DNA of 32,000 nucleotides from assembly GCF_041154365.1 (NCBI RefSeq), contig NZ_AP035449.1, one strand, 5' to 3'. Made by a program: the position numbers and the translations under genes. This DNA comes from Fidelibacter multiformis. Its GTDB lineage: Bacteria > Fidelibacterota > Fidelibacteria > Fidelibacterales > Fidelibacteraceae. A model generated the notes under the pieces. That model was not told where the DNA came from. It did not search any database and saw only the letters and a list, made by a program, of their open reading frames with translations. Of the stretch, positions 71-21,572 are shown piece by piece (the first letter of the stretch is position 1; the number at the start of each line of letters is the position of its first letter).

Positions 71-112
71 CAGTCGACAGTCGTCAGTGGACAGTTGGCA
101 GTAGTTAGTGGA
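71..112 (+). repeat. CAGTNNN heptamer tandem array (5 good units plus 1 degenerate)
   Basis: The units are cagtcga cagtcgt cagtgga cagttgg cagtagt tagtgga. The same heptamer family opens regions B (6849-6897) and C (16024-16086), and occurs inverted at 7527-7561. Confidence 0.9.
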
Positions 113-224
113 TTGATTCGATTGAATAGATTGACTGGATTGCTTGCCCCGTGAAAAGGGACCCGGTTTACCGGGATATTTCACGGGGGATTGATTCGAT
201 TGATTAGATTGGAGAATTGACCTG
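111..224. repeat. GATTG nonamer array, then a nested hairpin, then a second GATTG nonamer array
   Basis: First array: gattgattc gattgaata gattgactg gattgcttg (111-146). Outer stem CCCCGTGAAA (147-156) pairs with TTTCACGGGG (179-188), enclosing an inner hairpin CCCGG-ttta-CCGGG (162-175). Second array: gattgattc gattgatta gattggaga (189-215). A near-identical hairpin occurs at 6991-7032. Confidence 0.9.
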
Positions 225-295
225 GTTGAAACACCGGGAGCAGCGATGCTAACTTCAGACAGGCCGCAGCCTGTCCCTACATCTCGACACACATC

Positions 296-441
296 AGGAG
301 CGCAGCGACGCTAACTTCCAACTTCCACCTTCTAACTTCTTTAATAGAATTGGCGATTAATTTGATTTAGCACAAGGATTATAAGAGAGATGGGATATAT
401 GATTTCGCTTAGGTGACGCCCCCACCCCGGGGGTAAAATAC
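296..441 (+). repeat. Conserved composite module, copy 1 (NAACTTC heptamers, promoter-like TTAATT-17-TATAAG, mini-ORF, C5/G5 hairpin)
   Basis: Manual alignment to 16439-16585 gives 9 differences over about 146 nt. TATAAG is at 380-385 and TTAATT at 357-362, with a 17-nt spacer. The mini-ORF ATG GGA TAT ATG ATT TCG CTT AGG TGA spans 390-416 and is followed by GCCCCCACCCCGGGGGT. Confidence 0.8.
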
Positions 442-589: not shown

Positions 590-735
590 TTGCAATCAAT
601 TACTGCAAAGGCTATAAGTGAAACGAGATATATGATTTCGATTAGGTAGCGCCCCCCACCCCGGGGGTAAAATACACCGAAATGCGACACAATGCAAGAT
701 GATATTGTTATTCGTATATATGTATTATCGAATAA
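590..735 (+). repeat. Conserved composite module, copy 2 (core plus AT-rich tail), with TTGCAA-17-TATAAG promoter-like hexamers
   Basis: TTGCAA is at 590-595, followed by a 17-nt spacer and TATAAG at 613-618. The core gagatatatgatttcgattaggtagcgccccccaccccgggggtaaaatac and the tail accgaaatgcgacacaatgcaagatgatattg align to 16530-16620. The mini-ORF ATG ATT TCG ATT AGG TAG spans 632-649. Confidence 0.75.
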
Positions 736-1025: not shown

Positions 1026-4000
1026 TCATTTCATATACACAATCTTCCGGATCTGCACCTGCCGGTCAAAACGGGCCCTGACGATATAAAGACCCGTAGA
1101 GAGGTGTGAAGCGGTGTAATCAAAATGGTGTTCGCCGGCGGGATGATTCGAAAAAGCTATCCGGTCTACAATGCGGCCGGTGATATCCACAACTTCAAAC
1201 ACAAGATCCCCCGCATCCGGCAGGCTGTAGGTCAACCGGGTCACCGGATTGAAGGGATTGGGATAGGCGGATCCAAGTATAAAAACTTCGGGAAGGATCT
1301 CCTCTTCCTGTCCGGGAAGGGTCCGTTTCCGGATCACCACTTTCTCCGGATCTTCTCCCCAATCGATTCTGGCAATGCCGGTCAGTTCATCCTCCGGATA
1401 TTTGGTTTTCAGTTCTGTTAAATAATACTCCGCCTGAACACTATCCGCTAAATCCTTATCATAGAGATTGAACAGATCAAAAAGGGCCGTGGTTTCATGG
1501 ATGGTTTCCGGGTTTTCCGCAAGGATTTCACGGGAGAGGGCGATGGCCTGTTTCGTATCTTTCATCCGACGGTATTCGGACACTTTCCGGGATTTGATCA
1601 CGGCCCGGAGGGTCTTATCGTCGACACCGGTCAGGAGTTCATCCAGATACGTCAGCATATCCCGGGGTTTCTGTTCACGGCAGAGGCGTACGGACATGCT
1701 CAAGGCCCGGTAGGCATAAGTGGAGGCGGGATATAAGCGGATCAGGGTCTGAAAATCATCGAGTGCCCCGGTATAGTTCTTTTCCCACACGGCACTCATA
1801 GCGACTTCCCACAGGGCTTTGGCCGCTTCGTCGCCCGGTTTTTCTTCCGGATGGGATGCGATGACCGATTCAGGGCTGCTTTTACTCAGGGTGCTGCCGG
1901 AACCGGGATCGGATTGCAAAGGATATGTGGTGAGTACATCTCCGTAACAGGCAGATGCTGAAGGTTGACCCCACCAGCAACGTCTTGCATCGATGGATGA
2001 TGTGCCATCCGATGCGACGGCGGCATAATAGGTCCCCTGCCAGATAATGGAGTTTTTGCAATTTCCCCACACTTGTGGGATATGTCCACCCATAACAGGC
2101 GTTGAAGCATTGGATGCTAAAATAACACCCTCTGAAGATTCTCCGGATGACATATAATTAAAGCCCGTGTATGTATAATTTTCATACTGTCCAAACAGCG
2201 GATCGCTCCCGTTGTTTGCATACACTGCCCATAAAGCATCCGTGGTGCTGATCGTATTATAATACAGATCCGGTGATGATGAATACATTATAAAAGCATA
2301 ATTCCCGCTTCCGCCGGTAATCAAATTATTGTGCATTTCCGAATTACTGTTCACAAAATATAGACCGAATAACCCGGATTCCGTGATTGCATTTGATTCT
2401 ATTAAGGGGGACCCGTTGTAAACATACAGGCCAAAGGTTGAGGCATTGCTGATTGTATTATCAGAAATTTCCGAACCCGCCGGGACATTCAGACTCATGA
2501 TCCCATATCCGGAATTTGATAGTTCGTTGTTGGAAATAACGACAGACCCATTCGAACCTGAACAATAAATAGCATACGTCTCTATATCGGACAATGTATT
2601 CTCATATATGTATGGGGTCGATCCATTAGAACAGTAAATACCATTTTTACTGTTTGAGATTTCATTAAAGGTTATAACAGGTGTCCCATTCAATCCTGAA
2701 TTAATTGCCCTGCTTGAAATATTTGTCAGATGATTATAAAAAATATACGTTGAAGAATTCAGAGAGCTTATTCCGTAAGATGCATCAGATATGGTATTTG
2801 AACTGAGTACCAGGGCATCCTGGCCTGTTTTCCCTGAATGATCACGAATGGCTGTGGTTGCATGGGTTATAGTGCATCCGCTTAATGAGCCCGAACTGTT
2901 TTCCTGATAATATAGACCGCCCCAGGTTCCGGAAATACTTGTAAACGTTGCATTATTTCCTTCCAGGGTTGCACCCCCTGCTATCTCCAATGTTTTTCCC
3001 GATGGATATTTTAACAGGGCTCCATCCTGAGCCACCAGCTTTCTTCCACTCGTCAGGGTATACGTATCATTAAAAATAAATTCTCCGCGAAGGTAAAGTT
3101 CTGATCCGTTATTAAATGCATCATCAATTGTTGTATACAACCCCAGAACCGTTGACCCGGACATAAGACGGATATCCGGAGTAAAGCTTGCACCGGATTC
3201 GATAGCAAGTGACCCGGATCCTTTTTGAATGGTATGACTGTCTAACGTAATATCTGACCCGTTTCTAAATGTCAGTGTCACCCCCGGGGGAACGGTGAGA
3301 CTCACGGCAAGGGTGTGAGAACCATATACATCGATACTCTGGCCACTGGTGGCGGCTGACATGGCAGATGTGATTGTGGAATATATCCCTTTAATGGCAC
3401 TTCCCGTTATAAGCCGGGTATGGGAATTGGAGGAGTTGATGGTTGCGCCGGATTCGACGGTGATCGTTCCGCCGGTAGAAATTATTGAATACCCATTCAG
3501 AGTAATATTCGTACTATTGGATATAGTTAGAGTAATACCAGAAGGAACAATAATAATTCCTGTGATTGTGTGGGATCCGGACCATATTGCATTTGCTGGC
3601 AACGTGCCTTCCGACAACATGCCATTATCAATACCATCAAGAACTGTAGCACCTGTGTTATCCGGATCAAGCCAATCTCTTAGGCGAGAAGAAGAACTGC
3701 CCCCATAATTCCATGACATAGAAAATTTGCCATACCATTTAGTTCTATATTCACAAAAAGGAACATCTCCTGTTCCTCCTTGATTCTGACCTACAACTCT
3801 ATGGTCCTGATTAATTAATGGTGCTCCAGATGACCCCCTTTCTGTAGTTCCATCATCAAATGTAACTCTCCAATGAGAATTTTCTGGTGTTACGTCCCAA
3901 GAACTGGATATTGCTTGATCGTATTCAAAGGAAATTTTTTTGATATCACCACTTGGATGATGGATAACTACAGAAGATGTCGGTGGAGTATTAATATTAG

Positions 4001-4973
4001 ACCAACCGTTATAATATACATTGTAATCAGAAGGCGGTGTTTCATCAAGTATGAGTAATGCAAAATCTGATGCTATATTACTAGCTTTGAGAGATGCTCC
4101 AACAAGTGTTTGTGCAGTCGGCTCTTCAGGAGGATTGTTACAGGTGTTGCTTTCATAATTAAACCAAATAACCCAGGTGTCAATATCCCCGTCTAAACAG
4201 TGTTCGGCAGTTAAAAAATAGGGAGCATAATTTTCTTTAACATTGTTAAGTAAAGAGCCGGAACAAAGTCTGGTACCATCACCTAGGACAATCAAACCAA
4301 CCGATCGAACTTCATTCTGCCAGTCTTCAGCTTCCGGACAATGGACATTATTATTACAAGCTTCAGAATCACCATAACCGGTAATTTTATAAAAATGACT
4401 CTTATTAGCACCCTTAAAAAAATCACGGTAAGCATGAACAACTCTGGAAATACTAATTTCACCGGTTCGGATAACATTTGCGGGTTCATAATATTCAAGA
4501 ATAATTTCATCACCTCTAACTAATCCGGTAGCAAACTTACCATGCGCTTTATTATTTCGGGATGTAAAAGCACCAATAATCATACTTTTTTCATTATTAT
4601 ATAAAAAATATTTTGATCCTTCTGGCAACCAAAATTTATCATAAATCAAGTTTATTGAATATGCACCACGAGATATTATTTTTAAACGCCATAGTTTACT
4701 TCCATCGGGAAAATTTACCCACGTACCCGAGTTTTGCATATTATATGAAACATCAAATCCATAACCAAAACGATAAGGTTCAAATTCCGGCGCATATTCG
4801 TCCTCAAACAGAAGCATTTCCGTGTCAATTTCCATCATTTCTTTAACCTCGATGGATTCTGAAACTTGTCGGCTAAAAGAGTAAGGCTGTCCCCCTTCAC
4901 TTAATTGTGCATAACTATCTGAGTATGCACATACTAAATAAAATACAACAAACAAAAAAGCTTTCAATTTCAT
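1026..4973 (-). CDS. Exported multidomain S1 (trypsin-fold, lysyl-endopeptidase-like) serine protease with parallel beta-helix repeats, a TPR-like helical region and a T9SS C-terminal sorting domain
   Basis: 1315-aa ORF. Signal peptide MKLKAFLFVVFYLVCAYSDSYAQ. Triad-like motifs LTAEHC (His258), SDFALLIL (Asp303) and ERGSSGAP (Ser382). Residues ~455-960 are G/S/N/T-rich periodic segments (e.g. NNxISxNxxYGI) typical of right-handed beta-helix repeats. Residues ~1040-1200 are helical and TPR-like. The C-terminal ~80 aa (AYPNPFNPVTRLTYSLP...GLYIVRARF) match the T9SS type A CTD pattern. SD AAGGAAA lies 8 nt upstream of the ATG. Confidence 0.85.
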   Translation of the reverse strand: MKLKAFLFVVFYLVCAYSDSYAQLSEGGQPYSFSRQVSESIEVKEMMEIDTEMLLFEDEYAPEFEPYRFGYGFDVSYNMQNSGTWVNFPDGSKLWRLKIISRGAYSINLIYDKFWLPEGSKYFLYNNEKSMIIGAFTSRNNKAHGKFATGLVRGDEIILEYYEPANVIRTGEISISRVVHAYRDFFKGANKSHFYKITGYGDSEACNNNVHCPEAEDWQNEVRSVGLIVLGDGTRLCSGSLLNNVKENYAPYFLTAEHCLDGDIDTWVIWFNYESNTCNNPPEEPTAQTLVGASLKASNIASDFALLILDETPPSDYNVYYNGWSNINTPPTSSVVIHHPSGDIKKISFEYDQAISSSWDVTPENSHWRVTFDDGTTERGSSGAPLINQDHRVVGQNQGGTGDVPFCEYRTKWYGKFSMSWNYGGSSSSRLRDWLDPDNTGATVLDGIDNGMLSEGTLPANAIWSGSHTITGIIIVPSGITLTISNSTNITLNGYSIISTGGTITVESGATINSSNSHTRLITGSAIKGIYSTITSAMSAATSGQSIDVYGSHTLAVSLTVPPGVTLTFRNGSDITLDSHTIQKGSGSLAIESGASFTPDIRLMSGSTVLGLYTTIDDAFNNGSELYLRGEFIFNDTYTLTSGRKLVAQDGALLKYPSGKTLEIAGGATLEGNNATFTSISGTWGGLYYQENSSGSLSGCTITHATTAIRDHSGKTGQDALVLSSNTISDASYGISSLNSSTYIFYNHLTNISSRAINSGLNGTPVITFNEISNSKNGIYCSNGSTPYIYENTLSDIETYAIYCSGSNGSVVISNNELSNSGYGIMSLNVPAGSEISDNTISNASTFGLYVYNGSPLIESNAITESGLFGLYFVNSNSEMHNNLITGGSGNYAFIMYSSSPDLYYNTISTTDALWAVYANNGSDPLFGQYENYTYTGFNYMSSGESSEGVILASNASTPVMGGHIPQVWGNCKNSIIWQGTYYAAVASDGTSSIDARRCWWGQPSASACYGDVLTTYPLQSDPGSGSTLSKSSPESVIASHPEEKPGDEAAKALWEVAMSAVWEKNYTGALDDFQTLIRLYPASTYAYRALSMSVRLCREQKPRDMLTYLDELLTGVDDKTLRAVIKSRKVSEYRRMKDTKQAIALSREILAENPETIHETTALFDLFNLYDKDLADSVQAEYYLTELKTKYPEDELTGIARIDWGEDPEKVVIRKRTLPGQEEEILPEVFILGSAYPNPFNPVTRLTYSLPDAGDLVFEVVDITGRIVDRIAFSNHPAGEHHFDYTASHLSTGLYIVRARFDRQVQIRKIVYMK

Positions 4974-4999
4974 AATTACTTTTCCTTATCTTATACGTT

Positions 5000-5025
5000 C
5001 TTTCATTCTTTATAAGAATGGAAAG
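5000..5025 (-). other. Intergenic hairpin between the META-domain gene and the protease gene
   Basis: CTTTCATTCTT-tata-AGAATG(G)AAAG forms an 11-bp stem with one bulge. No U-tract follows on either strand, so it is not a canonical terminator. It may be a processing or stability element. Confidence 0.3.
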
Positions 5026-5038
5026 CTGAGACACAATA

Positions 5039-5467
5039 CTAATTAATAAAAAATATTAATCTGTAGTTATTTTCATAATAAATATATAAACAATCATTTT
5101 TTATTGCGTAATTATGAGCTTTACGAAGTGCGGAAAGATATTTATCACTTACGGATTGATCACCACTACAATTCTTTTCTGTTGTAACCAGTTGATCAAT
5201 TTTTAATGAATCACCGGAAAAAATGATATATTTTGCAAAGAAATCGTTACAGTCATTTTTACCTGAGATCGTGCTATCGTTATTAAAATGGATAGTATAA
5301 ATTTTATCCTTTGGTGGTTTGAGAATGTTGCCGTCATTATCAAATGATTTCAATGTCCATAGAGTATTTTGAAGACTTATTTCATTATCATTATTTTCAT
5401 CTGTTAAAATACAATTAGAAAATATTATTATAAAAACAAGACTAAATAATATCTTGAACTTTTTCAT
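5039..5467 (-). CDS. META-domain (HslJ-like) lipoprotein
   Basis: 142 aa. Signal peptide ending in the lipobox-like FSNC. The pattern W.L.....G......I...F......SG...CN.F...Y......L.I......T...C matches the META/HslJ-like fold family as I recall it. Very AT-rich codon usage. Confidence 0.7.
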   Translation of the reverse strand: MKKFKILFSLVFIIIFSNCILTDENNDNEISLQNTLWTLKSFDNDGNILKPPKDKIYTIHFNNDSTISGKNDCNDFFAKYIIFSGDSLKIDQLVTTEKNCSGDQSVSDKYLSALRKAHNYAIKNDCLYIYYENNYRLIFFIN

Positions 5468-5507
5468 CCTTATACCCCTTTTTTCTTTCTAATATAATTT
5501 CCCATTA

Positions 5508-6578
5508 CTATTCCACCAATTTTCCGTGTAAAACCAAGTCATATGGGCCAGGACATAGTATACTAAAAATTATATCTTTTTCTAAAATCAGAGGGTCACC
5601 AACAAAACTAATGTTTTCTGTTGGAAGCTTGTAGAGATATTCCATGTCTGTGCCATTATAGTGAACAATGCCGTCTTTCATGCAAATAAAAATATCTTTT
5701 TCATTTCTCCCGAAAATTGGTCTATAGAAATTATTCATATTTATGGAAATAAACTTTTTAAAATCATTACTTTTATAATAAAACACGTCATTACCAACAG
5801 TAAAATAAACCTTTCCATATATTGAGCTTATTCCAGCCCAGGAAATTATGCTTTCTTTATTGGAATAGATTTGCTGTAGTTCATTATCTACTACCTGATA
5901 AAATTCCACATCGCCGTCACCGGTCTCATAATTGATCCCGTATGAAAATACATACACCTTGTCATTCTCTGCTCTAATCCTCAAAAACTGTGAATTAAAA
6001 TCAGCCCGGGCCATTTCCCGCCAGTTCGTGCCGTCATAATGCAAGACAAACCCTCGCCAACACTCATTTGTTCCATCAAAAAAACTGATAACACCACAGG
6101 CATAAACATCGTTTGGTGAGGTTCCCCACATATCATAAATATTAATAGAATAGTAATCCTCTTCGATACTATACACATAGTTTTGTTTCCATTCCGCACC
6201 GTCATAATGCCAGATCCCTGCTCCATGCTCAAGCCAGCCTGCACCACCCCCCATCCATACATCATCCGCACTGAAACCAAACAGCGTAAATCCGGAACAC
6301 CAGATTGTTTCATTGGTGTACGTCGTCCACTCTGTGCCGTCATAGTGCAGCAGCCGGTCATACTGGGTACCGCCACCGCCAACCGCCCATACGTCATCAG
6401 GTGAAGCACCCCATACCGAACTGATATAATTCATGGGCATATCCAGCGTATCCAATGTCCATACATAGTTCCGTTTGCCCGGTTCCGGCTCAGGTTCAAA
6501 TTCCGAAGGATTATCTTCACAGGAACAAAGAGCCAATAGTGTTATCATACTTACTATCAGACATGTTTTCCGGATCAT
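5508..6578 (-). CDS. Lipoprotein with beta-propeller-like repeats, function unknown
   Basis: The ORF is open to 6611. The ATG at 6578 has SD GAGG 6 nt upstream and yields MIRKTCLIVSMITLLALCSCED, a lipoprotein signal with lipobox LALC. The ATG at 6611 has no SD. Six or so repeats of the type DV(W/Y)xxGxxG...(L/W)HYDG(T/A)xW suggest blades of a propeller. Confidence 0.7.
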   Translation of the reverse strand: MIRKTCLIVSMITLLALCSCEDNPSEFEPEPEPGKRNYVWTLDTLDMPMNYISSVWGASPDDVWAVGGGGTQYDRLLHYDGTEWTTYTNETIWCSGFTLFGFSADDVWMGGGAGWLEHGAGIWHYDGAEWKQNYVYSIEEDYYSINIYDMWGTSPNDVYACGVISFFDGTNECWRGFVLHYDGTNWREMARADFNSQFLRIRAENDKVYVFSYGINYETGDGDVEFYQVVDNELQQIYSNKESIISWAGISSIYGKVYFTVGNDVFYYKSNDFKKFISINMNNFYRPIFGRNEKDIFICMKDGIVHYNGTDMEYLYKLPTENISFVGDPLILEKDIIFSILCPGPYDLVLHGKLVE

Positions 6579-6793
6579 GCTTGCCTCATCTGTTTTTTCG
6601 AATTGCACCATTAGGGTGAAAAGTCTGGAATATTTTCATTCTCTTGGTTAAAAGATTGAAATCAGGTAATAAATTTTTACTTTTTCTGCAATTGTTAAAT
6701 ATATTGTTACATTGGCACAAATAATTACACATTAAAATAACTATTTTTGATTTTTGGCTCATATTACCAACACTTTTTACGAACTTACTGCAT

Positions 6794-6821
6794 ATTATAA
6801 AAAAAAAAAAACGATTGTCAA
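6794..6821 (-). promoter_or_regulatory. Consensus sigma70-type promoter TTGACA-N16-TATAAT whose spacer is largely a T13 homopolymer, facing the exported-protein block
   Basis: The minus strand reads TTGACA (6821-6816), then atcg plus 12 T (6815-6800), then TATAAT (6799-6794). The plus-strand A run spans 6799-6811 (13 nt), so the T13 run contributes 12 T to the spacer and the first T of the -10 hexamer. The predicted TSS is near 6787, about 175-210 nt upstream of the first CDS. Confidence 0.6.
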
Positions 6822-6848
6822 GATTATTCAGGTTGAGACTCGCTGTTT

Positions 6849-6897
6849 GCAGTCGGCAGTGGACAGTCGACAGTCGACAGTCGACAGTTGGCAGTGA
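6849..6897 (+). repeat. CAGTNNN-family heptamer array, 7 units
   Basis: The units are gcagtcg gcagtgg acagtcg acagtcg acagtcg acagttg gcagtga. Confidence 0.9.
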
Positions 6898-6948
6898 CGA
6901 GGAGATTGGAGGGATTGATTTGATTGAATAGATTGATTGGATTGCTTG

Positions 6949-7032
6949 CCCCGTGAAATGAGCGCAGCGTATTTCACAGGGGATTGCCTGCCCCGTGAAA
7001 AGGGATCCGGTTTACCGGGATATTTCACGGGG
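6949..7032. repeat. Two adjacent CCCCGTGAAA(T)...(A)TTTCAC(A)GGGG hairpins, the second nested
   Basis: Hairpin a: CCCCGTGAAAT (6949-6959), loop gagcgcagcgt, ATTTCACAGGGG (6971-6982). A copy is at 16189-16222. Hairpin b: CCCCGTGAAA (6991-7000), inner CCGG-ttta-CCGG, TTTCACGGGG (7023-7032). A copy is at 147-188. Confidence 0.9.
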
Positions 7033-7096
7033 GATTCGATTGAATAGATTGATTGGATTGGGGGATTGGATGATTGGCACTTCGCTGAGCTCAGTG

Positions 7097-7420
7097 TTCA
7101 AACGCCTTCGGCGATCAAGAATTCAAGCGGCACTTCGTGCCGTTCAATTGCTTCACTTTGTTCAGCATTCAAGCACTGCTTCGCAGTGTTCAAAAAAGAA
7201 TTCCAGTCACCCATTGAAATCCGCATATCTGGAATTGAACACCGAACGAAGTGAGGTGCTTGAACCCCATGAAATGGGGGTTGAACGCCGTCAGGCGTTG
7301 GAATACCGCACAGCGGTTATTGAACACCGAACATTGTGAGGTGCTTGAACACCACGAAGTGGTGATTGAAAGCCGCGTAGCGGCGTTTAATAAATCAAGC
7401 GGCACTTCGTACCGTTCAAT
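7097..7420. repeat. Array of at least 11 short hairpins (mostly 4-6 bp stems with 3-nt loops) separated by a conserved TTCAA (left arm) or TTGAA (right arm) linker
   Basis: Left arm. CGCC-TTC-GGCG (7103-7113). CGGCAC-TTC-GTGCCG (7128-7142). CACTGC-TTC-GCAGTG (7174-7188). Right arm. CACCgaAC-GAA-GTgaGGTG (7240-7258). CCCCAT-GAA-ATGGGG (7265-7279). AACGCC-gtca-GGCGTT (7284-7299). ACCGC-aca-GCGGT (7305-7317). CACCgaAC-att-GTgaGGTG (7325-7343). CACCAC-GAA-GTGGTG (7350-7364). GCCGC-gta-GCGGC (7372-7384). Then a degenerate copy of the second hairpin at 7400-7414. Linker orientation flips near the GAATTC at 7198-7203. Confidence 0.85.
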
Positions 7421-7473
7421 TGCTTCGCTGCACTCAGCATCTCCGCCCTCTCCATAAAAAATCACTCTCAGCA

Positions 7474-7523
7474 TCTCCGCGCCCACTGCGGGAGGAAAAA
7501 GTCTCCGCGCCCTCTGCGGGAGG
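7474..7523 (-). repeat. Two CTCCGCG...GCGGGAGG hairpin modules (same family as 950-1024), each followed on the minus strand by a T-run
   Basis: tctccgcgcccactgcgggagg (7474-7495) followed by aaaaa. tctccgcgccctctgcgggagg (7502-7523). On the minus strand these read hairpin-CTTTTT and hairpin...GATTTTTTAT, which is terminator-like, yet no minus-strand gene ends here. Confidence 0.6.
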
Positions 7524-7526
7524 ATG

Positions 7527-7561
7527 TCGACTGCCCACTGACGACTGATGACTGACGACTG
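7527..7561 (-). repeat. Inverted CAGTNNN heptamer array, 5 units
   Basis: The plus strand reads tcgactg cccactg acgactg atgactg acgactg. The reverse complement gives CAGTCGT CAGTCAT CAGTCGT CAGTGGG CAGTCGA. Confidence 0.9.
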
Positions 7562-7642
7562 ATTAAGTTTACATAAAATCATTGTGTATCCCAAAAGCCT
7601 GTCATAAATTTTATTCCTAAACATAAAGAGACGAGGCAAAAC

Positions 7643-10058: not shown

Positions 10059-10436
10059 ATGATGAATTTCCCTAAAAATTTAAAGTATTCCGATGATCAC
10101 GAATGGGTCCGTGTGGAAGGTGACGAAGCGGTTATCGGAATCACGGATTTTGCCCAGAGCGAACTGGGTGATGTGGTTTACCTGGAACTTCCCTCCGTGG
10201 GTGATGAAGTCAGCAAGGGCGATGCTTTCGGTACCATCGAAGCGGTCAAAACCGTCTCCGATATGCTGGCACCCGTTTCCGGTGAAATCATTGCAGTGAA
10301 TGAAGACCTGAATGATTCTCCGGAAGACGTGAACAAAGAGCCCTATGAAAGCTGGCTGGTTAAAATTAAAATGTCCGATCCTTCCGAAACGGAAGACCTG
10401 ATGGACGCGGAAGCCTACGAAGAATTTATCGGCTGA
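10059..10436 (+). CDS. gcvH: Glycine cleavage system H protein (lipoyl carrier)
   Basis: 125 aa. YSDDHEWVR motif and lipoyl-lysine context GTIEAVKTVSDM. SD AAGGAG upstream. Confidence 0.95.
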   Translation: MMNFPKNLKYSDDHEWVRVEGDEAVIGITDFAQSELGDVVYLELPSVGDEVSKGDAFGTIEAVKTVSDMLAPVSGEIIAVNEDLNDSPEDVNKEPYESWLVKIKMSDPSETEDLMDAEAYEEFIG

Positions 10437-10486
10437 GTCTTCCTTCAAACGGACAAGTGAACACCATTCTCTTATGAGGAGAAACC

Positions 10487-11824
10487 ATGGTTTATATCCC
10501 CAATTCTGAAAAAGATTTTCAGGAGATGTTACAGGCCATCGGGGTTAAGGATTTCGAGGATCTTCTACAATCCATCCCTGATGTGTTGAAATCGGACCGG
10601 ACGCTGGATCTTCCGCCGCCCCTAACGGAAATGGAGCTGGAGGCGGAAATCGCCGGAATCGCCGGAAAAAACCGGGCTTCAGACCGGCTGATCAACTTTA
10701 TGGGCGGGGGAGCCTATGATCACTTCATCCCAAAGGTGGTGGATTATATCCTTTCCCGTTCAGAATTTAAAACAGCCTATACCCCTTATCAGCCCGAAGT
10801 CAGCCAGGGCACCCTCCAGGCCATGTATGAATACCAGTCCATGATCTGTGAACTGACAGGCATGGGCGTTTCCAATGCCTCGCTCTATGACGGCGCCAGC
10901 GGCCTGGCGGAAGCAGCCATGATGGCCCGGAATATTACCGGAAAAAACCGCATTCTGATCGCTGAAACGGTCCACCCTCTTTACCTGCAGGTCCTGAAAA
11001 CCTACGCCGGTTCCCTGGAACTGGATATTGACATTCTTCCCGCCAAAAATTATGTGACCGATCCCAATGCATTGGATGAAAAACTGACATCCCAAACGGC
11101 AGCGGTCATCCTTCAGAGTCCAAATTTTTACGGTTATGTGGAAAACGCTCCGGCAGCGGCGGAAAAAGCCCATCAGGCGGAGGCTCTTTTCATCCAGGGT
11201 TTTGATCCCATTTCGCTGGCCATTCTCAGGGCTCCCGGGGATTACGGGACGGATATCGTTTTTGGCGAAGGGCAGTCACTGGGAAATCATCTGAACTTTG
11301 GCGGACCGTATCTGGGACTTTTTGCGGCAGACCGGAAGTATGTGCGAAAAATGCCGGGACGGATAATCGGCGCAACGGAAGATACACAGGGCCGCAGGGG
11401 ATTCGTCCTAACGCTCCAGACCCGGGAACAACATATCCGCCGGGAAAAGGCCACCAGTAATATCTGCACAAACCAGGGACTCAATGCCCTGGCAGCAACG
11501 GTCTATCTGGCGCTACTGGGAAAATGCGGCATTCGGAAAGTTGCCGAACTGAGCACCCAAAAAGCCCACTACCTGCATGAAAAAATCACCGCCTTGAAGG
11601 GATTTGATAAAGTTTCGGATGAACCTTTTTTCAAGGAATTCACCGTTTACACCCGTATCCCGGCAGCAGAAGTGGTCCGGGAAGCAGAACAGGCGGGATT
11701 TCTGGCGGGAGTCCATGTGGGACAATTTTATCCCGGCAGGATGCATGAACTGATCCTGGCGGTTACAGAAAAACGGACGAAAGCACAGATGGATAAACTG
11801 ATCAACTTTCTGGGAAGCCTATGA
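10487..11824 (+). CDS. gcvPA: Glycine dehydrogenase (decarboxylating), subunit 1 (N-terminal P-protein subunit)
   Basis: 445 aa. The motifs FMGGGAYDHFIP, YTPYQPEVSQGTLQ and REQHIRREKATSNICTNQ are characteristic of the two-subunit P protein alpha chain. No gcvPB follows. Confidence 0.93.
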   Translation: MVYIPNSEKDFQEMLQAIGVKDFEDLLQSIPDVLKSDRTLDLPPPLTEMELEAEIAGIAGKNRASDRLINFMGGGAYDHFIPKVVDYILSRSEFKTAYTPYQPEVSQGTLQAMYEYQSMICELTGMGVSNASLYDGASGLAEAAMMARNITGKNRILIAETVHPLYLQVLKTYAGSLELDIDILPAKNYVTDPNALDEKLTSQTAAVILQSPNFYGYVENAPAAAEKAHQAEALFIQGFDPISLAILRAPGDYGTDIVFGEGQSLGNHLNFGGPYLGLFAADRKYVRKMPGRIIGATEDTQGRRGFVLTLQTREQHIRREKATSNICTNQGLNALAATVYLALLGKCGIRKVAELSTQKAHYLHEKITALKGFDKVSDEPFFKEFTVYTRIPAAEVVREAEQAGFLAGVHVGQFYPGRMHELILAVTEKRTKAQMDKLINFLGSL

Positions 11825-15595: not shown

Positions 15596-15624
15596 TTGAA
15601 CGGAACGGGGAAAATCCCTATACT
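15596..15624 (+). promoter_or_regulatory. Near-consensus sigma70-type promoter for ssrA (TTGAAC-N17-TATACT)
   Basis: TTGAAC is at 15596-15601, followed by a 17-nt spacer and TATACT at 15619-15624. The mature tmRNA 5' end lies 18 nt downstream. Confidence 0.6.
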
Positions 15625-15641: not shown

Positions 15642-15993
15642 GGGGGTGTACAGGTTTCGACGGGATAGACCGGTTTATGCGATAGCGTGCCGAGGTGTTC
15701 AGGATTCCTCGTGAATCAACCTGAAAACAATCGTAATTGCAGACAATTACGCTTACGCTGCTTAAACAACATTAGGTAGCCGTCCGCCCGGGTTTGTTCG
15801 TGGGCCCGGACCGGGCGCCAATAACACGGACTCGTTCCTGGTATTGTCTGGGTACTAAGAACTAAACACTTTCAGACTGGCTGCCGGTGGTTTGTTTTTT
15901 GTCCTCCCGGCAGTAAGACTCAACAAAAAACTGCGCACGGAGAAATCGTGTAAGTCGCTATTTCGGACCCGGGTTCGATTCCCGGCACCTCCA
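15642..15993 (+). ncRNA. ssrA: Transfer-messenger RNA (tmRNA, SsrA)
   Basis: The 5' end reads GGGGGTGTACAGGTTTCGACGGG and the 3' end GGACCCGGGTTCGATTCCCGGCACCTCCA. The acceptor stem GGGGGUG/CACCUCC has a G3:U wobble. The T-arm is GGGTTCGATTCCC. The tag reading frame GCA GAC AAT TAC GCT TAC GCT GCT TAA (15739-15765) encodes ...ADNYAYAA-stop. CCA is not encoded. Confidence 0.95.
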
Positions 15994-16023
15994 CTTGTAA
16001 ATGTTTAGACGTTGTTTTGTTGG

Positions 16024-16438
16024 CAGTCGGCAGTTGACAGTTGTCAGTCATCAGTCGTCAGTCGGCAGTCGGCAGTCGGCAGTGGTGAGGGGATTGGGGA
16101 GATTGATTCGATTGGATAGATAGATTTGATTGAAACACCAGGAGCGACGCTAACTTCCAACTTCCAACTTCCAGATTTTGATTGCCTGCCCCGTGAAATG
16201 AGCGCAGCGTATTTCACAGGTGATTGATTGGATTGGGGGATTGGCACTTCGCTGCACGCAGTGTTATAGGATTCAAGCGGCACTTCGTGCCTTTCAATTG
16301 CTTCGCTGCGCTCAGCATTCAATCGCCTTCGGCGTTCAATGATTCCAGGCGTCGACATTTGAACGCTGCGCAGCAGCGTTTGAAAACCGCGAAGCGGCTA
16401 TTGAACCCATGAGCCCCTGAACCCATGAACCAACTATC
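16024..16438. repeat. Mosaic non-coding repeat region C (same module families as A and B), starting 30 nt after ssrA
   Basis: Order of modules. CAGTNNN x9 (16024-16086). GATTG nonamers x5 (16092-16136). ttgaaacaccaggagcgacgctaa plus NAACTTC x3 (16151-16171). CCCCGTGAAAT hairpin (16189-16222). A GATTG tract. A triloop hairpin array with TTCAA linkers: GGCAC-TTC-GTGCC (16279-16291) and CGCC-TTC-GGCG (16324-16334). The linkers then switch to TTGAA after GTCGAC (16351-16356): AACGCTGC-gca-GCAGCGTT (16362-16380) and CCGC-GAA-GCGG (16387-16397). Confidence 0.9.
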
Positions 16439-16640
16439 AGGAGCAAAGCGACGCTAAATTCCAACTTCCACCTTCTAACTTCTTAAATAGAATTGGCGAT
16501 TCATTTGATTTAGCACCAGGATTATAAGAGAGATGGAATATATGATTTCGCTTAGGTAACGCCCCCCACCCCGGGGGTAAAATACAGCGAAATGCGACTT
16601 AAAGCAAGATAATATTGATAATAATATATATGATGAATAA
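16439..16640 (+). repeat. Conserved composite module, copy 3 (full length: heptamers, TTCATT-17-TATAAG, mini-ORF, C/G hairpin, AT-rich tail)
   Basis: Aligns to 296-441 (9 differences) and to 612-735. TATAAG is at 16523-16528. The mini-ORF ATG GAA TAT ATG ATT TCG CTT AGG TAA spans 16533-16559. The module ends 5 nt from the stop of the convergent response regulator gene. Confidence 0.8.
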
Positions 16641-16644
16641 TTTT

Positions 16645-17028
16645 TTATAATTGTTCCGGGGCTTTACCAAAATAGAATTTGATAATGGGAGTGAGCAGAC
16701 TGACATCGACAGGTTTGCTAAAATATCCCAGCGGATTCAGTTTTTTTGCCTGTTCACTGAAATCCGACTGAGAGTAACCTGTCATAAAAATAACTGGGAT
16801 ATCCTGTTGTTTACGGATCTTTTCCATGGTGTGGATACCATCTATATCATCCTGTAAAGAGATGTCCATGAGTATCAAATCAGGTTTTTCCTCCTGGGAT
16901 TTTTGTATAGCTTTTTTACCACATGCCACACAACCGCAAACATCATACCCTTCCAGTTCCAATTCCAGACTAAGGTTGTAAGCAATAATTGCTTCATCTT
17001 CCACCAGCAAAATTCGAATCTTTTTCAT
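16645..17028 (-). CDS. Stand-alone response regulator receiver domain (CheY-like)
   Basis: 127 aa. ILLVEDE acidic pocket, phospho-acceptor context DLILMDISL, T in IFMTGY and K in YFSKP. No output domain. Confidence 0.9.
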   Translation of the reverse strand: MKKIRILLVEDEAIIAYNLSLELELEGYDVCGCVACGKKAIQKSQEEKPDLILMDISLQDDIDGIHTMEKIRKQQDIPVIFMTGYSQSDFSEQAKKLNPLGYFSKPVDVSLLTPIIKFYFGKAPEQL

Positions 17029-19491: not shown

Positions 19492-21531
19492 ATGATGGAC
19501 CCGCCGGTTGCTCCGAGAATTGAAAAAAAGATTGAAGCTTTCGGAGATATTCGGGTGGATCATTATGACTGGCTGAAAGATAAACAGAATCCGGAGGTTA
19601 TCCGATATCTGGAGGCGGAAAACGATTATGCAGACTTTATCCTGAAAAACACCCGTAAGTTGCAGAAAAAACTGTACCGGGAAATGATCGGACGGATACA
19701 GGAAACAGATATGTCCGTCCCTGTGAAACACGATGATTACTTTTATTACAGCCGGACGGAAAAAGGGAAACAATACAGCATCTATTGCCGGAAAAAAGGA
19801 TCCTTGGACCATAAAGAAGAGATCTATTTTGATGCCAATACACAGGCTGAGCATAGTGATTTTTATTCCTTGGGACTTCTAAGTGTGTCCTCCAACCATC
19901 AGATCCTTGCCTATGCCGAAGACCGGAATGGCTCGGAAGTATATACCCTGCGTTTTAAAAATCTTGAAAAGGATTCCCTCTATCCGGAAGTCATCGACAG
20001 TGTGGCCGGCGGGGTATGGGCAAATGACAACAAGACCTTTTTTTATTCAACCATTGATTATACCTACCGCCCATGGCGGGTTTACCGGCATGTTCTGGGA
20101 ACTCCCGCTTCAGAGGATGTCCTGGTGTATGAAGACCCGGACATGGCCTACTATGTGGATGTGGACCGTTCAAAGGACAGGCAGTACATCTTTATTACAT
20201 CCGCAAGCAAGATCACAACAGAAGTCCATTACCTGAAAACCAGCGATCCTGAAAAGGATTTCACCCTTTTTGCACCCCGGGAGAAGGGAAAGGAATACAG
20301 CCTGGAACATCGGGACGGATTTTTCTATATCCTGACCAACCTGAATGATCAGAAAAATTTTATCATCCTCCGTCAGCCGGTTTCAGCACCGGCCTTTACA
20401 CAGACCGTCACAGTGTATGAACACAATCCGGAGGTTAAAATCACCGGTTTGGATATGTTTGAAGATTATCTTGCCGTCTACAAAACCGGAAATGCCCGGG
20501 CCATGATTGATGTGTATACTTTTGGGGATAAAGAAGCCCATACCATTTCCTTTCCGGAAGAAACGTATACCGCCCGGGGGACCGGCAATCCGGAATATAC
20601 ATCGGACGTTTTGAGAATTTACTATACCTCACTTCTTACCCCCGAGACGGTTTATGAATATAATATGAAAACCCGGGAACTCTCCCTGCTGAAACAAAAA
20701 GAAGTCCGCGGCGGTTGGGACCGTCACGATTATACCACGGACCTCTTATGGGTCACAGCCCGTGACGGGGCGAAAATCCCGGTGTCGATGCTCTACCCGA
20801 AAGGATTTAAAAAAGATGGGACTCAGCCTGTGTTTCTTTATGGATACGGAGCATACGGTATTGCCATGACACCCTATTTTTCCTATGCCCGCTGGAGTCT
20901 GGTGGACCGGGGATTTGCCTATGCCGTCGCCCATATAAGGGGTGGCGGAGCCAAGGGTGAATACTGGTATGAAGACGGGAAATGGCTGAAGAAAAAAAAT
21001 ACCTTTACGGATTTTATTGATGTGGTTGAATATCTTATCCAGGAAGGTTACACGACACCTGAAAAACTGGCCATAGGTGGCGGGAGCGCCGGCGGTCTTC
21101 TCATGGGAGCTGTCGTAAATATGCGCCCGGATCTCTTTGGGGTTGTGGTGGCCAGCGTTCCCTTTGTGGATGTCCTCAATACCATGTCGGATCCCGATTT
21201 ACCCCTGACCGTCACCGAATATGACGAATGGGGGAATCCGGGCATCGAAACCTATTACCGGTACATCAAAAGTTATTGTCCCTATACCAATGTGAAAGCA
21301 CAGGACTATCCTCCCATGATGATTACAGCGGGGCTGAATGATCCCCGGGTTTCCTATGCCGAGCCGGCCAAATGGACCGCCAAACTCCGTGCCCTGAAAA
21401 CAGATCATCATCCCCTGATTTTAAGAACCAATATGGGGGCCGGACACGGGGGAGCATCGGGCCGTTATGATGCCTATAAGGAAATTGCTGAGGAATATGG
21501 GTTTGTTTTGGGAATCATTAAAGGAGAATGA
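19492..21531 (+). CDS. ptrB: Oligopeptidase B / prolyl oligopeptidase family S9A serine peptidase (start as in the ORF track; see the A7 frameshift finding)
   Basis: 679 aa. N-terminal PPVAPRIEKKIEAFGDIRVDHYDWLKDK beta-propeller domain. Catalytic Ser in GGSAGGLLMG, with Asp (GLNDPRV) and His (GAGHGG) near the C-terminus. Upstream in the same frame, codons 19426-19491 encode KKVYDISLLFTSIILLLSCSQE, a lipoprotein signal, but contain no in-frame start codon. Confidence 0.9.
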   Translation: MMDPPVAPRIEKKIEAFGDIRVDHYDWLKDKQNPEVIRYLEAENDYADFILKNTRKLQKKLYREMIGRIQETDMSVPVKHDDYFYYSRTEKGKQYSIYCRKKGSLDHKEEIYFDANTQAEHSDFYSLGLLSVSSNHQILAYAEDRNGSEVYTLRFKNLEKDSLYPEVIDSVAGGVWANDNKTFFYSTIDYTYRPWRVYRHVLGTPASEDVLVYEDPDMAYYVDVDRSKDRQYIFITSASKITTEVHYLKTSDPEKDFTLFAPREKGKEYSLEHRDGFFYILTNLNDQKNFIILRQPVSAPAFTQTVTVYEHNPEVKITGLDMFEDYLAVYKTGNARAMIDVYTFGDKEAHTISFPEETYTARGTGNPEYTSDVLRIYYTSLLTPETVYEYNMKTRELSLLKQKEVRGGWDRHDYTTDLLWVTARDGAKIPVSMLYPKGFKKDGTQPVFLYGYGAYGIAMTPYFSYARWSLVDRGFAYAVAHIRGGGAKGEYWYEDGKWLKKKNTFTDFIDVVEYLIQEGYTTPEKLAIGGGSAGGLLMGAVVNMRPDLFGVVVASVPFVDVLNTMSDPDLPLTVTEYDEWGNPGIETYYRYIKSYCPYTNVKAQDYPPMMITAGLNDPRVSYAEPAKWTAKLRALKTDHHPLILRTNMGAGHGGASGRYDAYKEIAEEYGFVLGIIKGE

Positions 21532-21572
21532 AGAATGAAGAATGAAGAATGATGAATGATGAATGATGAATT
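21524..21572 (+). repeat. Heptamer tandem repeat (A/G)(A/T)GAATG x7 spanning the ptrB stop codon
   Basis: The units are gagaatg aagaatg aagaatg aagaatg atgaatg atgaatg atgaatt. The ptrB TGA stop (21529-21531) lies in unit 1. The repeat supplies several ATG and TGA triplets in all frames. Confidence 0.9.

Follow-up and report, generated by a model that had tools for sequence, protein, structure and literature searches.

The 32-kb window analysed here is a stretch of 32,000 nt from contig NZ_AP035449.1 of Fidelibacter multiformis, in which three intergenic regions, A (1-1025), B (6849-7563) and C (16022-16644), which together account for 7.4% of its length, share a set of short repeats. All positions refer to this window, the plus strand is the orientation in which it is shown, and the related loci and contigs that were fetched carry L-numbers (L001, L002, and so on). 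The surrounding genes are ordinary bacterial ones: they code for a META-domain protein, efp, accB, accC, an integrase of the XerC/D type, a SpoU methylase, a response regulator and a secreted beta-helix/trypsin protein of 1315 amino acids (aa) with a type-IX secretion tail. One copy of the gene for transfer-messenger RNA (tmRNA), ssrA, is located at 15642-15996 on the plus strand. Region A follows where the 1315-aa gene, coded on the minus strand, has its stop codon, region B separates the divergent 367-aa gene and efp, and region C is located between ssrA and the response-regulator gene (16645-17028, minus strand). The annotation of open reading frames (ORFs) and tmRNA agrees with the genomic contexts given for the three regions in an initial reading of the letters (the sequence-only reading).

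Tandem arrays of CAGTNNN heptamers were identified with Tandem Repeats Finder (TRF) in all three regions, at 71-112 (6 units), 6850-6898 (7 units) and 16022-16086 (9 units), each followed by GATTG nonamers; TRF also recovered AACTTCC heptamers, TGAACCCA octamers and GAGTGGA heptamers. The 22-base head pattern CAGTN3CAGTN3CAGTN8GATTGN4GATTG matched three times in the window and not once in 100 shuffles of it, and a repeat finder tied A, B and C together by 17 repeat families with 82-100% identity. Among these, a 146-nt module at 293-438 is 91% identical to 16436-16581, and 613-722 is 85% identical to 16523-16632; between loci, the identity was 86-94% for hairpin blocks and 97-100% for short blocks. 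The three head matches, set against none in the shuffles, and the shared blocks show that the observation is real. The common building blocks, the start with heptamers and then nonamers, and the unit counts were all as first described, and the high identity of the modules also stood, with its range corrected from 90-100% to 82-100%. ORFs within the repeats (16044-16358, 6995-7339, 7190-7639 and 699-944) had no match in Pfam and the variation occurs in units of 7, 8 and 9 nt; the repeats are non-coding.

Region C opens on the plus strand with nine tandem CAGTNNN heptamers (16024-16086, NNNACTG on the minus strand; TRF and regular expressions), of which a near-identical strain has three. A GATTGNNNN nonamer array (16092-16133; TRF and regular expressions) and a TTGAAACACCAGGAGCGACGCTAA block with three AACTTCC heptamers (16128-16173; TRF and repeat finder) follow on the same strand. 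The H1 hairpin (CCCCGTGAAATGAGCGCAGCGTATTTCACAGG) at 16185-16219 is 94% identical to 6937-6986 and has a fold z-score of -2.3. It is succeeded on the plus strand by nonamers, a GGCACTTCGCTG..CAGTGTT block and small triloop hairpins with TTCAA and then TTGAA spacers (16222-16400), by an array of four TGAACCCN octamers (16402-16431; TRF), which number up to 14 in related loci, and by a AACTATCAGGAGCAAAGCGACGCTAA block with NAACTTC heptamers (16432-16483; TRF and repeat finder). The last module is a promoter-like core on the minus strand (16518-16644; nhmmer 16644..16518, E 2.7e-35), which consists of an AT-rich block (16608-16644), the -35 hexamer TTGCTT (16607..16602), a 17-nt spacer, the -10 hexamer TATTTT (16584..16579) and ACCCCCGGGGTGGGGGG. 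Its putative start is near 16572, and it would be aimed leftwards into the repeats.

The head and body of region A (71-339, plus strand; TRF, repeat finder, regular expressions and folding) comprise six heptamers (71-112), nonamers, an H2 hairpin (146-193), further nonamers, a TTGAAACACC block, an H3 hairpin (258-275) and AGGAGCGCAGCGACGCTAA with heptamers (293-339). There are two core copies on the minus strand. The first (376-452) is truncated and matched the nhmmer model at positions 53-130 only; it has retained the -10 and the part downstream of it, with GAGTGGA heptamers (449-473) in place of the -35 side. The second (609-735, E 2.5e-36 with nhmmer) is complete, with the -35 TTGCAT at 697..692, a 17-nt spacer and the -10 TATTTT at 674..669. 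The tail (736-1025), which adjoins the stop codon of the 1315-aa gene, includes CTCCGCG..GCGGGAGG direct repeats (915-1024). In region B, the head and body (6850-7098, plus strand) contain seven heptamers, nonamers, H1 (6945-6979), H2 (6990-7028), nonamers and a GGCACTTCGCTG block. Hairpin arrays on the same strand (7099-7440) have TTCAA, then TTGAA, then again TTCAA spacers, and the TTGAA-spaced part holds two copies of a 75-nt repeat (7216-7290 and 7301-7375) that start 85 nt apart. Two CTCCGCG..GCGGGAGG repeats (7441-7523, plus strand; repeat finder) precede an inverted heptamer array on the minus strand beside the efp upstream region (7525-7563; TRF and repeat finder), which had been overlooked in the sequence-only reading and is longer in the relative L029.

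The H1 and H2 hairpins (CCCCGTGAAA..TTTCACGGGG) are more stable than shuffled controls (z -2.3 to -3.8), and the inner stem of H2 varies in a compensated manner (CCCGG/CCGGG, CCCAA/TTGGG, CCCGA/TCGGG). The small hairpins mostly have stems of 4-8 bp and loops of 3 nt, with TTC on one strand and GAA, GCA or GTA on the other. The CTCCGCG/GCGGGAGG repeats, which had been taken for hairpins, are indeed repeated, but rather as direct repeats: they fold no better than shuffled sequence (z about 0), by which a role as terminators was also ruled out.

To examine the order of the modules, eleven types of module were annotated on either strand of the window and of all non-redundant loci; these clustered into 54 composites. 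Heptamers stood before nonamers in 68 comparisons and after them in 16, and they likewise stood before the CCCCGTGAAA hairpins (24:4), the TTGAAACACC block (13:1), the GGCACTTCG block (8:0), the octamers (9:0) and the core (14:0). The core was also preceded by nonamers (42:2), hairpins (13:3) and octamers (5:1). The composites are polar and colinear, with modules that are optional or reiterated. It had been proposed that order, presence and copy number all differ between loci; optional blocks and varying copy numbers were recovered, but the polar, colinear order means that there is no free 'Lego' shuffling.

A full unit, read on the plus strand, starts with (CAGTNNN)n heptamers, (GATTGNNNN)n nonamers and a CCCCGTGAAA..TTTCACGGGG hairpin, continues with optional TTGAAACACC or AGGAGC..GCGACGCTAA blocks with (NAACTTC)n and with triloop hairpins that have TTCAA and then TTGAA spacers, and ends with (TGAACCCN)n octamers and a core of ~130-150 nt. 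Single loci that resemble region C show the series of heptamers, nonamers, hairpin, nonamers, GGCACTTCG block, TTCAA-spaced and then TTGAA-spaced hairpins and octamers, after which comes either the AGGAGC..GCGACGCTAA block with NAACTTC heptamers or a GACAGGC hairpin, with the core last. Any block may be absent, and the heptamer-nonamer-hairpin unit is reiterated in three loci (L025, L013 and L014). The copy number ranges from 3 to 12 for heptamers, 2 to 9 for nonamers and 3 to 14 for octamers, and the composites are from ~230 nt to more than 1 kb long. About half of them, including region B, L019 and L025, lack the core according to a profile search. A link between orientation and replication was ruled out, as two units in L020 lie 5 kb apart in opposite orientation.

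For the core, 39 unique copies were aligned, and 36 of these were re-anchored without gaps on the -10. Even the most divergent cores keep the same order of elements on the strand opposite to the plus orientation of the unit: a near-palindrome (AATAATATTAT) set in an AT-rich stretch, a hexamer that starts with TTG (TTGACA in seven divergent copies and TTGCAT or TTGCTT in the main group), exactly 17 nt that are unrelated in sequence among the divergent copies, TATTTT or TATCTT, ACCCCCGGGGTGGGGG and, ~20 nt further downstream, CATATAT. The -10 box is followed on this strand by CCCCCGGGGTGGGGG. TTG was located exactly 20 nt upstream of TATNTT in 35 of the 36 aligned copies, an exact match to TTG-N20-TATNTTACCCCCGGGGTGGGGG was found in 37 of the 64 fetched loci, and the divergent cores combine TTGACA-17 nt-TATCTT with unrelated spacer sequences. 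This anatomy reads as that of a sigma-70-type promoter on the minus strand with an AT-rich upstream element and a GC-rich start region, directed into the repeats and towards the heptamers. The promoter-like boxes on this strand had escaped the sequence-only reading. Promoters of the sigma-70 type were also recognized elsewhere in the window, namely a perfect TTGACA-16-TATAAT in front of the 367-aa gene (6821..6794) and TTGAAC-17-TATACT before ssrA (15596-15624). The latter is the likely ssrA promoter and ends 17 nt 5' of the mature tmRNA; the tmRNA 3' end (15996) is not followed by any terminator-like hairpin before the first heptamer starts at 16024. At 7216-7440, at 16266-16431 and in related loci, the same TTGAAC hexamer recurs both in the octamers (CTTGAACC) and in the sequence that separates the small hairpins, and the heptamer variant TTGACTG includes TTGAC, so that the arrays are full of -35-like boxes.

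Downstream of divergent cores, other tandem repeats were identified: heptamers of the sequence GACTTYC in L049, ACTCTCC in L040 and CTCAGCA in L036, and a 25-nt repeat in L056. In L049 (9383-9743), a tandem pair of cores 244 nt apart precedes the GACTTYC heptamers and a gene, and in L056 the core (2642-2769) is followed by four copies of the 25-nt repeat, which contains TCTTGACAC. L054 (6257-6450) has a classic terminator hairpin ~100 nt after the core, because of which this locus looks like a small RNA gene of ~120 nt. A search against Rfam 15 returned only the tmRNA above threshold, all other best matches (E 1.3-4.8) being far under the thresholds. A structured RNA gene or riboswitch in the ~150-nt module was ruled out by the lack of an Rfam match and by RNAalifold, which found only an invariant 5-bp stem. 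An ATTTCG/CGAAAT pairing was dropped when the larger alignment showed no consistent covariation, as was a leader peptide (ATG...PPPRG*) across the C-run, the frame of which is kept in only two divergent copies, and a dif/Xer-like site in the AT-rich palindrome, which was read by eye only and misfits in spacing. CRISPR was ruled out, as repeats and spacers do not alternate regularly and CRISPR-DR8 reached no better than E 3.7.

The head pattern was found in 23 stretches among 185,579 species genomes, many of them less than 200 nt from a contig end. Nearly all belong to two metagenome-assembled genomes (MAGs), 'Marinimicrobia bacterium 46_43' (LGGY01) and 'Candidatus Neomarinimicrobiota' (JASGMP01). 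Three are in other bins, namely Prevotellaceae, Bacteroidales and a contig labelled Kosmotogaceae. The last one (L027, JBNGCV010000116.1) is probably mis-binned, because it carries a full composite of the Marinimicrobia type; it also has a promoter module that is 92.5% identical to the window. The Prevotellaceae MAG (L023, 2136-2201) and the Bacteroidales UBA1189 contig (L024, 6479-6568) have CAGTNNN arrays followed by inverted copies between co-directional genes. By eye, these form an inverted repeat of ~25 bp in L024, and the arrays in L023 are only loosely inverted and read (AAACTGA)n on the other strand, near the published TAACTGA repeats. A 21-base pattern of the conserved module matched 31 metagenome stretches, and the LDZU assembly has at least 10 core copies, as compared to three composites in the 32-kb window; all copies are intergenic. 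Searches of viral contigs, phages and plasmids gave no match to the repeats, which rules out a phage or plasmid origin, and a literature search found no description of the repeats in Marinimicrobia.

We also compared the window to related contigs. Contig L002 is 99.2-99.65% identical to the window across 19.5 kb of genes. Region C has 9 heptamers in the window and 3 in L002, which amounts to one indel of 42 nt, and the only other differences there are two substitutions; a hairpin pair is restored by one of them. In region B, a hairpin module of ~57 nt (7385-7440) is swapped for a AGGAGCGCAGCGACGCTAA-plus-heptamer module in L002, and the GCGGGAGG repeat is present in two copies in the window versus three in L002. 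Whole TTCAA-bounded units were gained or lost among the hairpin arrays of six aligned copies. Contig L001 is 99.66% identical to the window from 16515 rightwards only, with other modules and genes on its left: at 10385-11310, the response-regulator gene and core are joined to different modules, a tetratricopeptide repeat gene and a giant protein of 3111 aa, and ssrA is not there. This junction at the core is either a strain rearrangement or an assembly chimera. For region A, the continuation to the left was not recovered, and the 1315-aa protein had no exact match in the collection searched. The changes that were visible came about by slippage or by exchange between copies rather than by insertion with a duplicated target, and the family is young, labile and lineage-restricted.

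On balance, we consider it probable that A, B and C belong to a genome-wide family of polar, mosaic, non-coding repeats that is specific to one lineage of Marinimicrobia and fills intergenic regions there. The family recombines, resembles BIME and BOX elements and carries a promoter-like module. The kind of element is known, and the present version appears to be undescribed. As the comparison of strains supports, the family changes when its units of 7, 8 and 9 nt slip and when dispersed copies undergo homologous recombination or gene conversion; such events swap modules and may rearrange flanking genes. The family would accumulate where it does little harm, in the 3' flanks of genes and in convergent regions. 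Units with a core may be transcribed as repeat-rich non-coding RNA, and the heptamer and nonamer arrays may be platforms for some sequence-specific binding protein.

Several observations weigh against parts of this reading. Promoter activity is a prediction from the sequence, and the -35 of the main group (TTGCAT/TTGCTT) fits three of six consensus bases and was not called by a simple scanner. The divergent copies have a weaker promoter-like TTGTCA-18 nt-TATATT on the plus strand, in the opposite direction, which makes the direction ambiguous. Since about half of the composites have no core, region B among them, a promoter cannot explain the whole family. Within the first 85 nt of the putative transcript, RNAalifold recovered only the invariant C5/G5 stem, which is itself in the search pattern, and folds of whole units were on neither strand better than shuffles (z -1.1 and -1.6). 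The gene-context counts given below are based on a crude ORF caller and on MAG fragments. A bolder version, which we put forward tentatively and regard as doubtful, is that the core is an active promoter of the stable-RNA style, present in at least 10 copies per genome, each of which would drive a non-coding 'repeat RNA' with ordered arrays of protein-binding heptads, nonads and octads as well as hairpins. Across the genome, the copies would jointly serve as an RNA (or DNA) platform on which one or more nucleic-acid-binding proteins are titrated or positioned. If this were true, a single conserved class of proteins would bind both the ACTG heptamer arrays and the arrays of the TAACTGA type in Beggiatoaceae, Cyanobacteria and Bacteroidetes.

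The gene upstream of the core, in promoter orientation, was co-directional and ended 28-550 nt away in 22 of 27 cases (~18 of 22 without redundant loci). Downstream of the unit, a co-directional gene starts in 14 cases and a convergent gene ends in 12, which means that many units occupy intergenic regions of the convergent type. The heptamer end is located 5-25 nt past the stop codon of a convergent gene or 24-264 nt ahead of the start of a co-directional gene. Such positions could be explained if the repeats were functional punctuation selected for the flanking genes, that is, 3'-end stabilizers, terminators, insulators or upstream arrays of binding sites for neighboring promoters. Heads that follow stop codons this closely, at ~10 loci, leave no room for another terminator, stable H1/H2 hairpins occur within ~100 nt, and the elements are enriched in convergent intergenic regions. 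Both inverted heptamer arrays of region B end ~24-28 nt upstream of the -35 of the flanking gene (the 367-aa gene and efp), and the substitution between strains that restores a hairpin pair would also fit selection on the element. However, the hairpins have no U-tracts, a terminator scan showed no enrichment, the same modules are found both after stops and before starts, and their content differs between strains that are more than 99% identical.

The region upstream of efp is also informative in this respect. Among two relatives with 88% EF-P identity, L029 has inverted heptamers and octamers, and L032 has no repeats and a transposase remnant. In the latter, 1-710 holds the C-terminal part of a transposase-like ORF, as judged by eye only, and a piece like the AT-rich part of the core (nhmmer E 0.023). 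At 81% (L030) and 73% (L031) EF-P identity, only a short plain spacer was found, which is 88 nt in the orthologous upstream region of relatives, so that the element is dispensable there. An obligatory punctuation system, as the sequence-only reading had offered for one of two options, is thus unlikely, and selection for punctuation in the broader sense appears doubtful to us as well.

The other option was a mobile or recombining family. Recombination is borne out by strains that differ in a swapped module and in unit numbers; mobility of the transposon type is not. The corresponding explanation is that the repeats are non-autonomous transposable elements, such as miniature inverted-repeat transposable elements (MITEs), REPINs or passengers of the IS200/IS605 type, which are moved by a transposase encoded elsewhere that recognizes the hairpins or heptamer ends as single-stranded DNA. 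It would account for copies at many unrelated loci in at least two species-level genomes, for the presence or absence of the efp-upstream copy among close relatives, for the inverted heptamer arrays at both ends of region B, L027 and L028(b), and for the many small hairpins with GAA, GCA or GTA triloops, GNA triloops being unusually stable in single-stranded DNA. Yet neither constant termini nor target-site duplications were seen at the head junctions read, and length and content vary (~230 nt to more than 1 kb). Regions A and C, like most other copies, lack a terminal inverted repeat, and the differences between strains resemble slippage and module replacement rather than insertion or excision. 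The suggested co-occurrence with a recombinase or transposase was not found either in the fragments covered, which extend over ~8 kb around the repeats: the genes upstream of the cores are mutually unrelated (dehydrogenases, an HtrA-type protease, response regulators, hydF and others) and include no recombinase, the flanking genes are ordinary housekeeping genes with no transposase among those examined, and the only integrase of the window is the XerC/D-type protein 2 kb away. A dedicated partner gene was ruled out on the same grounds, and a tblastn link to proteins with secretion tails failed for the adjacent genes. We therefore judge a mobile element to be unlikely, and think that the family is neither an essential punctuation system nor a classical transposon.

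An artefact of mis-assembly or contig joining at low-complexity sequence, or a purely local duplication, is very improbable: many contigs end within the repeats, and in L001 the core is the exact point at which other genes adjoin the response-regulator gene, but the response-regulator protein is coded on 7 public contigs, two independent Joint Genome Institute (JGI) assemblies run collinear with the window across region C and agree base for base with it and both its flanks, save one indel and two single-nucleotide polymorphisms, and the family is dispersed in two species-level Marinimicrobia MAGs from NCBI and in JGI metagenomes of different samples. For the family this explanation is already refuted; individual unit counts and the L001 junction may still reflect assembly error.

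We compared the mosaic repeat family with known systems. Bacterial interspersed mosaic elements (BIMEs) built from repetitive extragenic palindromic (REP) sequences in E. coli and pseudomonads are extragenic, multi-copy mosaics of small stem-loops and linker motifs (PMC2817692, PMC3116915). The Marinimicrobia repeats are likewise extragenic, multi-copy mosaics of small GC-rich stem-loops and short motifs that favor gene 3' flanks and convergent regions and break assemblies. REP units are imperfect palindromes of 20-40 nt with a common consensus (a GTAG-type 5' end), alternate in orientation across defined linkers and go with a cognate RAYT (Y1 transposase) gene in the genome. In contrast to BIMEs, the present repeats have no REP consensus or GTAG head, their hairpin types (H1, H2, H3 and many triloop hairpins) are unrelated, the palindromes do not alternate, and the hairpin spacer switches from TTCAA to TTGAA once per unit. 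Long tandem arrays of 7-, 8- and 9-nt units, a fixed polarity over 0.2-1 kb and the promoter-like module also set them apart. The uniform length and target-site duplication of MITEs were not observed, with no duplicated flank at the junctions read. BOX elements of Streptococcus pneumoniae have the structure boxA-boxB(n)-boxC (PMC3049150) and share the modular polar architecture with inner modules of varying number, as well as the intergenic, non-coding nature. They are unrelated in sequence, phylum and scale; the present family has many more module types, much shorter tandem units and a promoter-like terminal module.

Heptamer direct repeats of the TAACTGA type, the role of which is unexplained, are known from Beggiatoaceae, Cyanobacteria and Bacteroidetes (MacGregor 2015, PMC4679880). 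Both kinds are intergenic tandem heptamers with an ACTG core on the other strand (here most commonly CCGACTG, TCGACTG, TCCACTG and TTGACTG), show indels in 7-nt steps between strains (here 42 nt, or 6 units), form assemblages with other short repeats and have contigs that end in them. The heptamer repeats of cyanobacterial short tandemly repeated repetitive (STRR) sequences are comparable. The two Bacteroidales matches from the genome scan, with CAGTNNN arrays and inverted copies between genes, fit the wider distribution of the TAACTGA type. However, no locus contains tandem TAACTGA, only the ACTG core is common to both, and the arrays described here are not directly at start codons (24-264 nt away) and have a fixed place at the outer end of a larger composite with ordered modules. 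Reused or mobile promoters have been described in which one promoter-containing sequence recurs at many loci (PMC3575422). Here too, a highly similar promoter-containing sequence is found at many loci beside unrelated genes, but about half of the copies face the 3' end of a convergent gene and have hundreds of nucleotides of repeats downstream. Correia elements of Neisseria are another example of small repeats that carry promoters.

Small interspersed repeats shape the plasticity of bacterial genomes and are mostly unexplained. In an abundant uncultured phylum, the present family breaks metagenome assemblies and thereby limits the completeness of Marinimicrobia MAGs. Module exchange appears to concentrate in it, and rearrangements and the replacement of cassettes may do so too. 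Its fixed polarity and promoter-like core offer a testable handle on repeat transcription and on what binds ACTG-type heptamer arrays (PMC4679880). Even if it were only selfish or neutral repeat DNA, it would help to type strains and would call for caution in binning, as illustrated by the copy in the Kosmotogaceae-labelled contig.

Regions A and B had also been suggested to mark the borders of an accessory cassette. The block between them (1026-6611) has a GC content of 0.29-0.43 over most of its length versus ~0.47-0.55 in the flanking genes. On its right, an upstream module (6594-6862), which spans the perfect promoter in front of the 367-aa gene together with six codons from the start of that gene, is 94% identical to a contig of MAG 46_43 (L042), in which the frame stops after 8 codons and a gene for a PKD/LRR protein comes next. 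On its left, positions 613-1024, which follow the 1315-aa gene, share 96% identity with what comes after hydF in the same 46_43 contig, further along which a 52% identical homologue of the 1315-aa protein is coded. Conserved non-coding flanks (94-96%) with different genes between them fit a surface-protein cassette that may be replaced via recombination in the repeats; the AT-rich block and its flanks thus stood up, and no excision or insertion junction was seen in the compared sequences. The AT-rich module of ~240 nt in front of the 367-aa gene, which is lipoprotein-like, recurs at L042/L020 (6418-6685), L027 (683-977) and L008 (4732-4978), with identities of 94%, 92.5% and 79% in the copies at other loci. 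Together with the different gene that follows in L042, this suggests that the promoter module is conserved and that the surface-protein genes behind it are replaceable.

A second heptamer family, (AGAATGA)n or (TCATTCA)n on the other strand, was observed at gene ends. In the window, it is located at 21525-21571, where the S9 peptidase and epimerase genes meet. It was also identified near gene ends in L020 (414-467), L008 (357-455) and L014 (1276-1333), and the Logan contigs L004 and L005 start within it.

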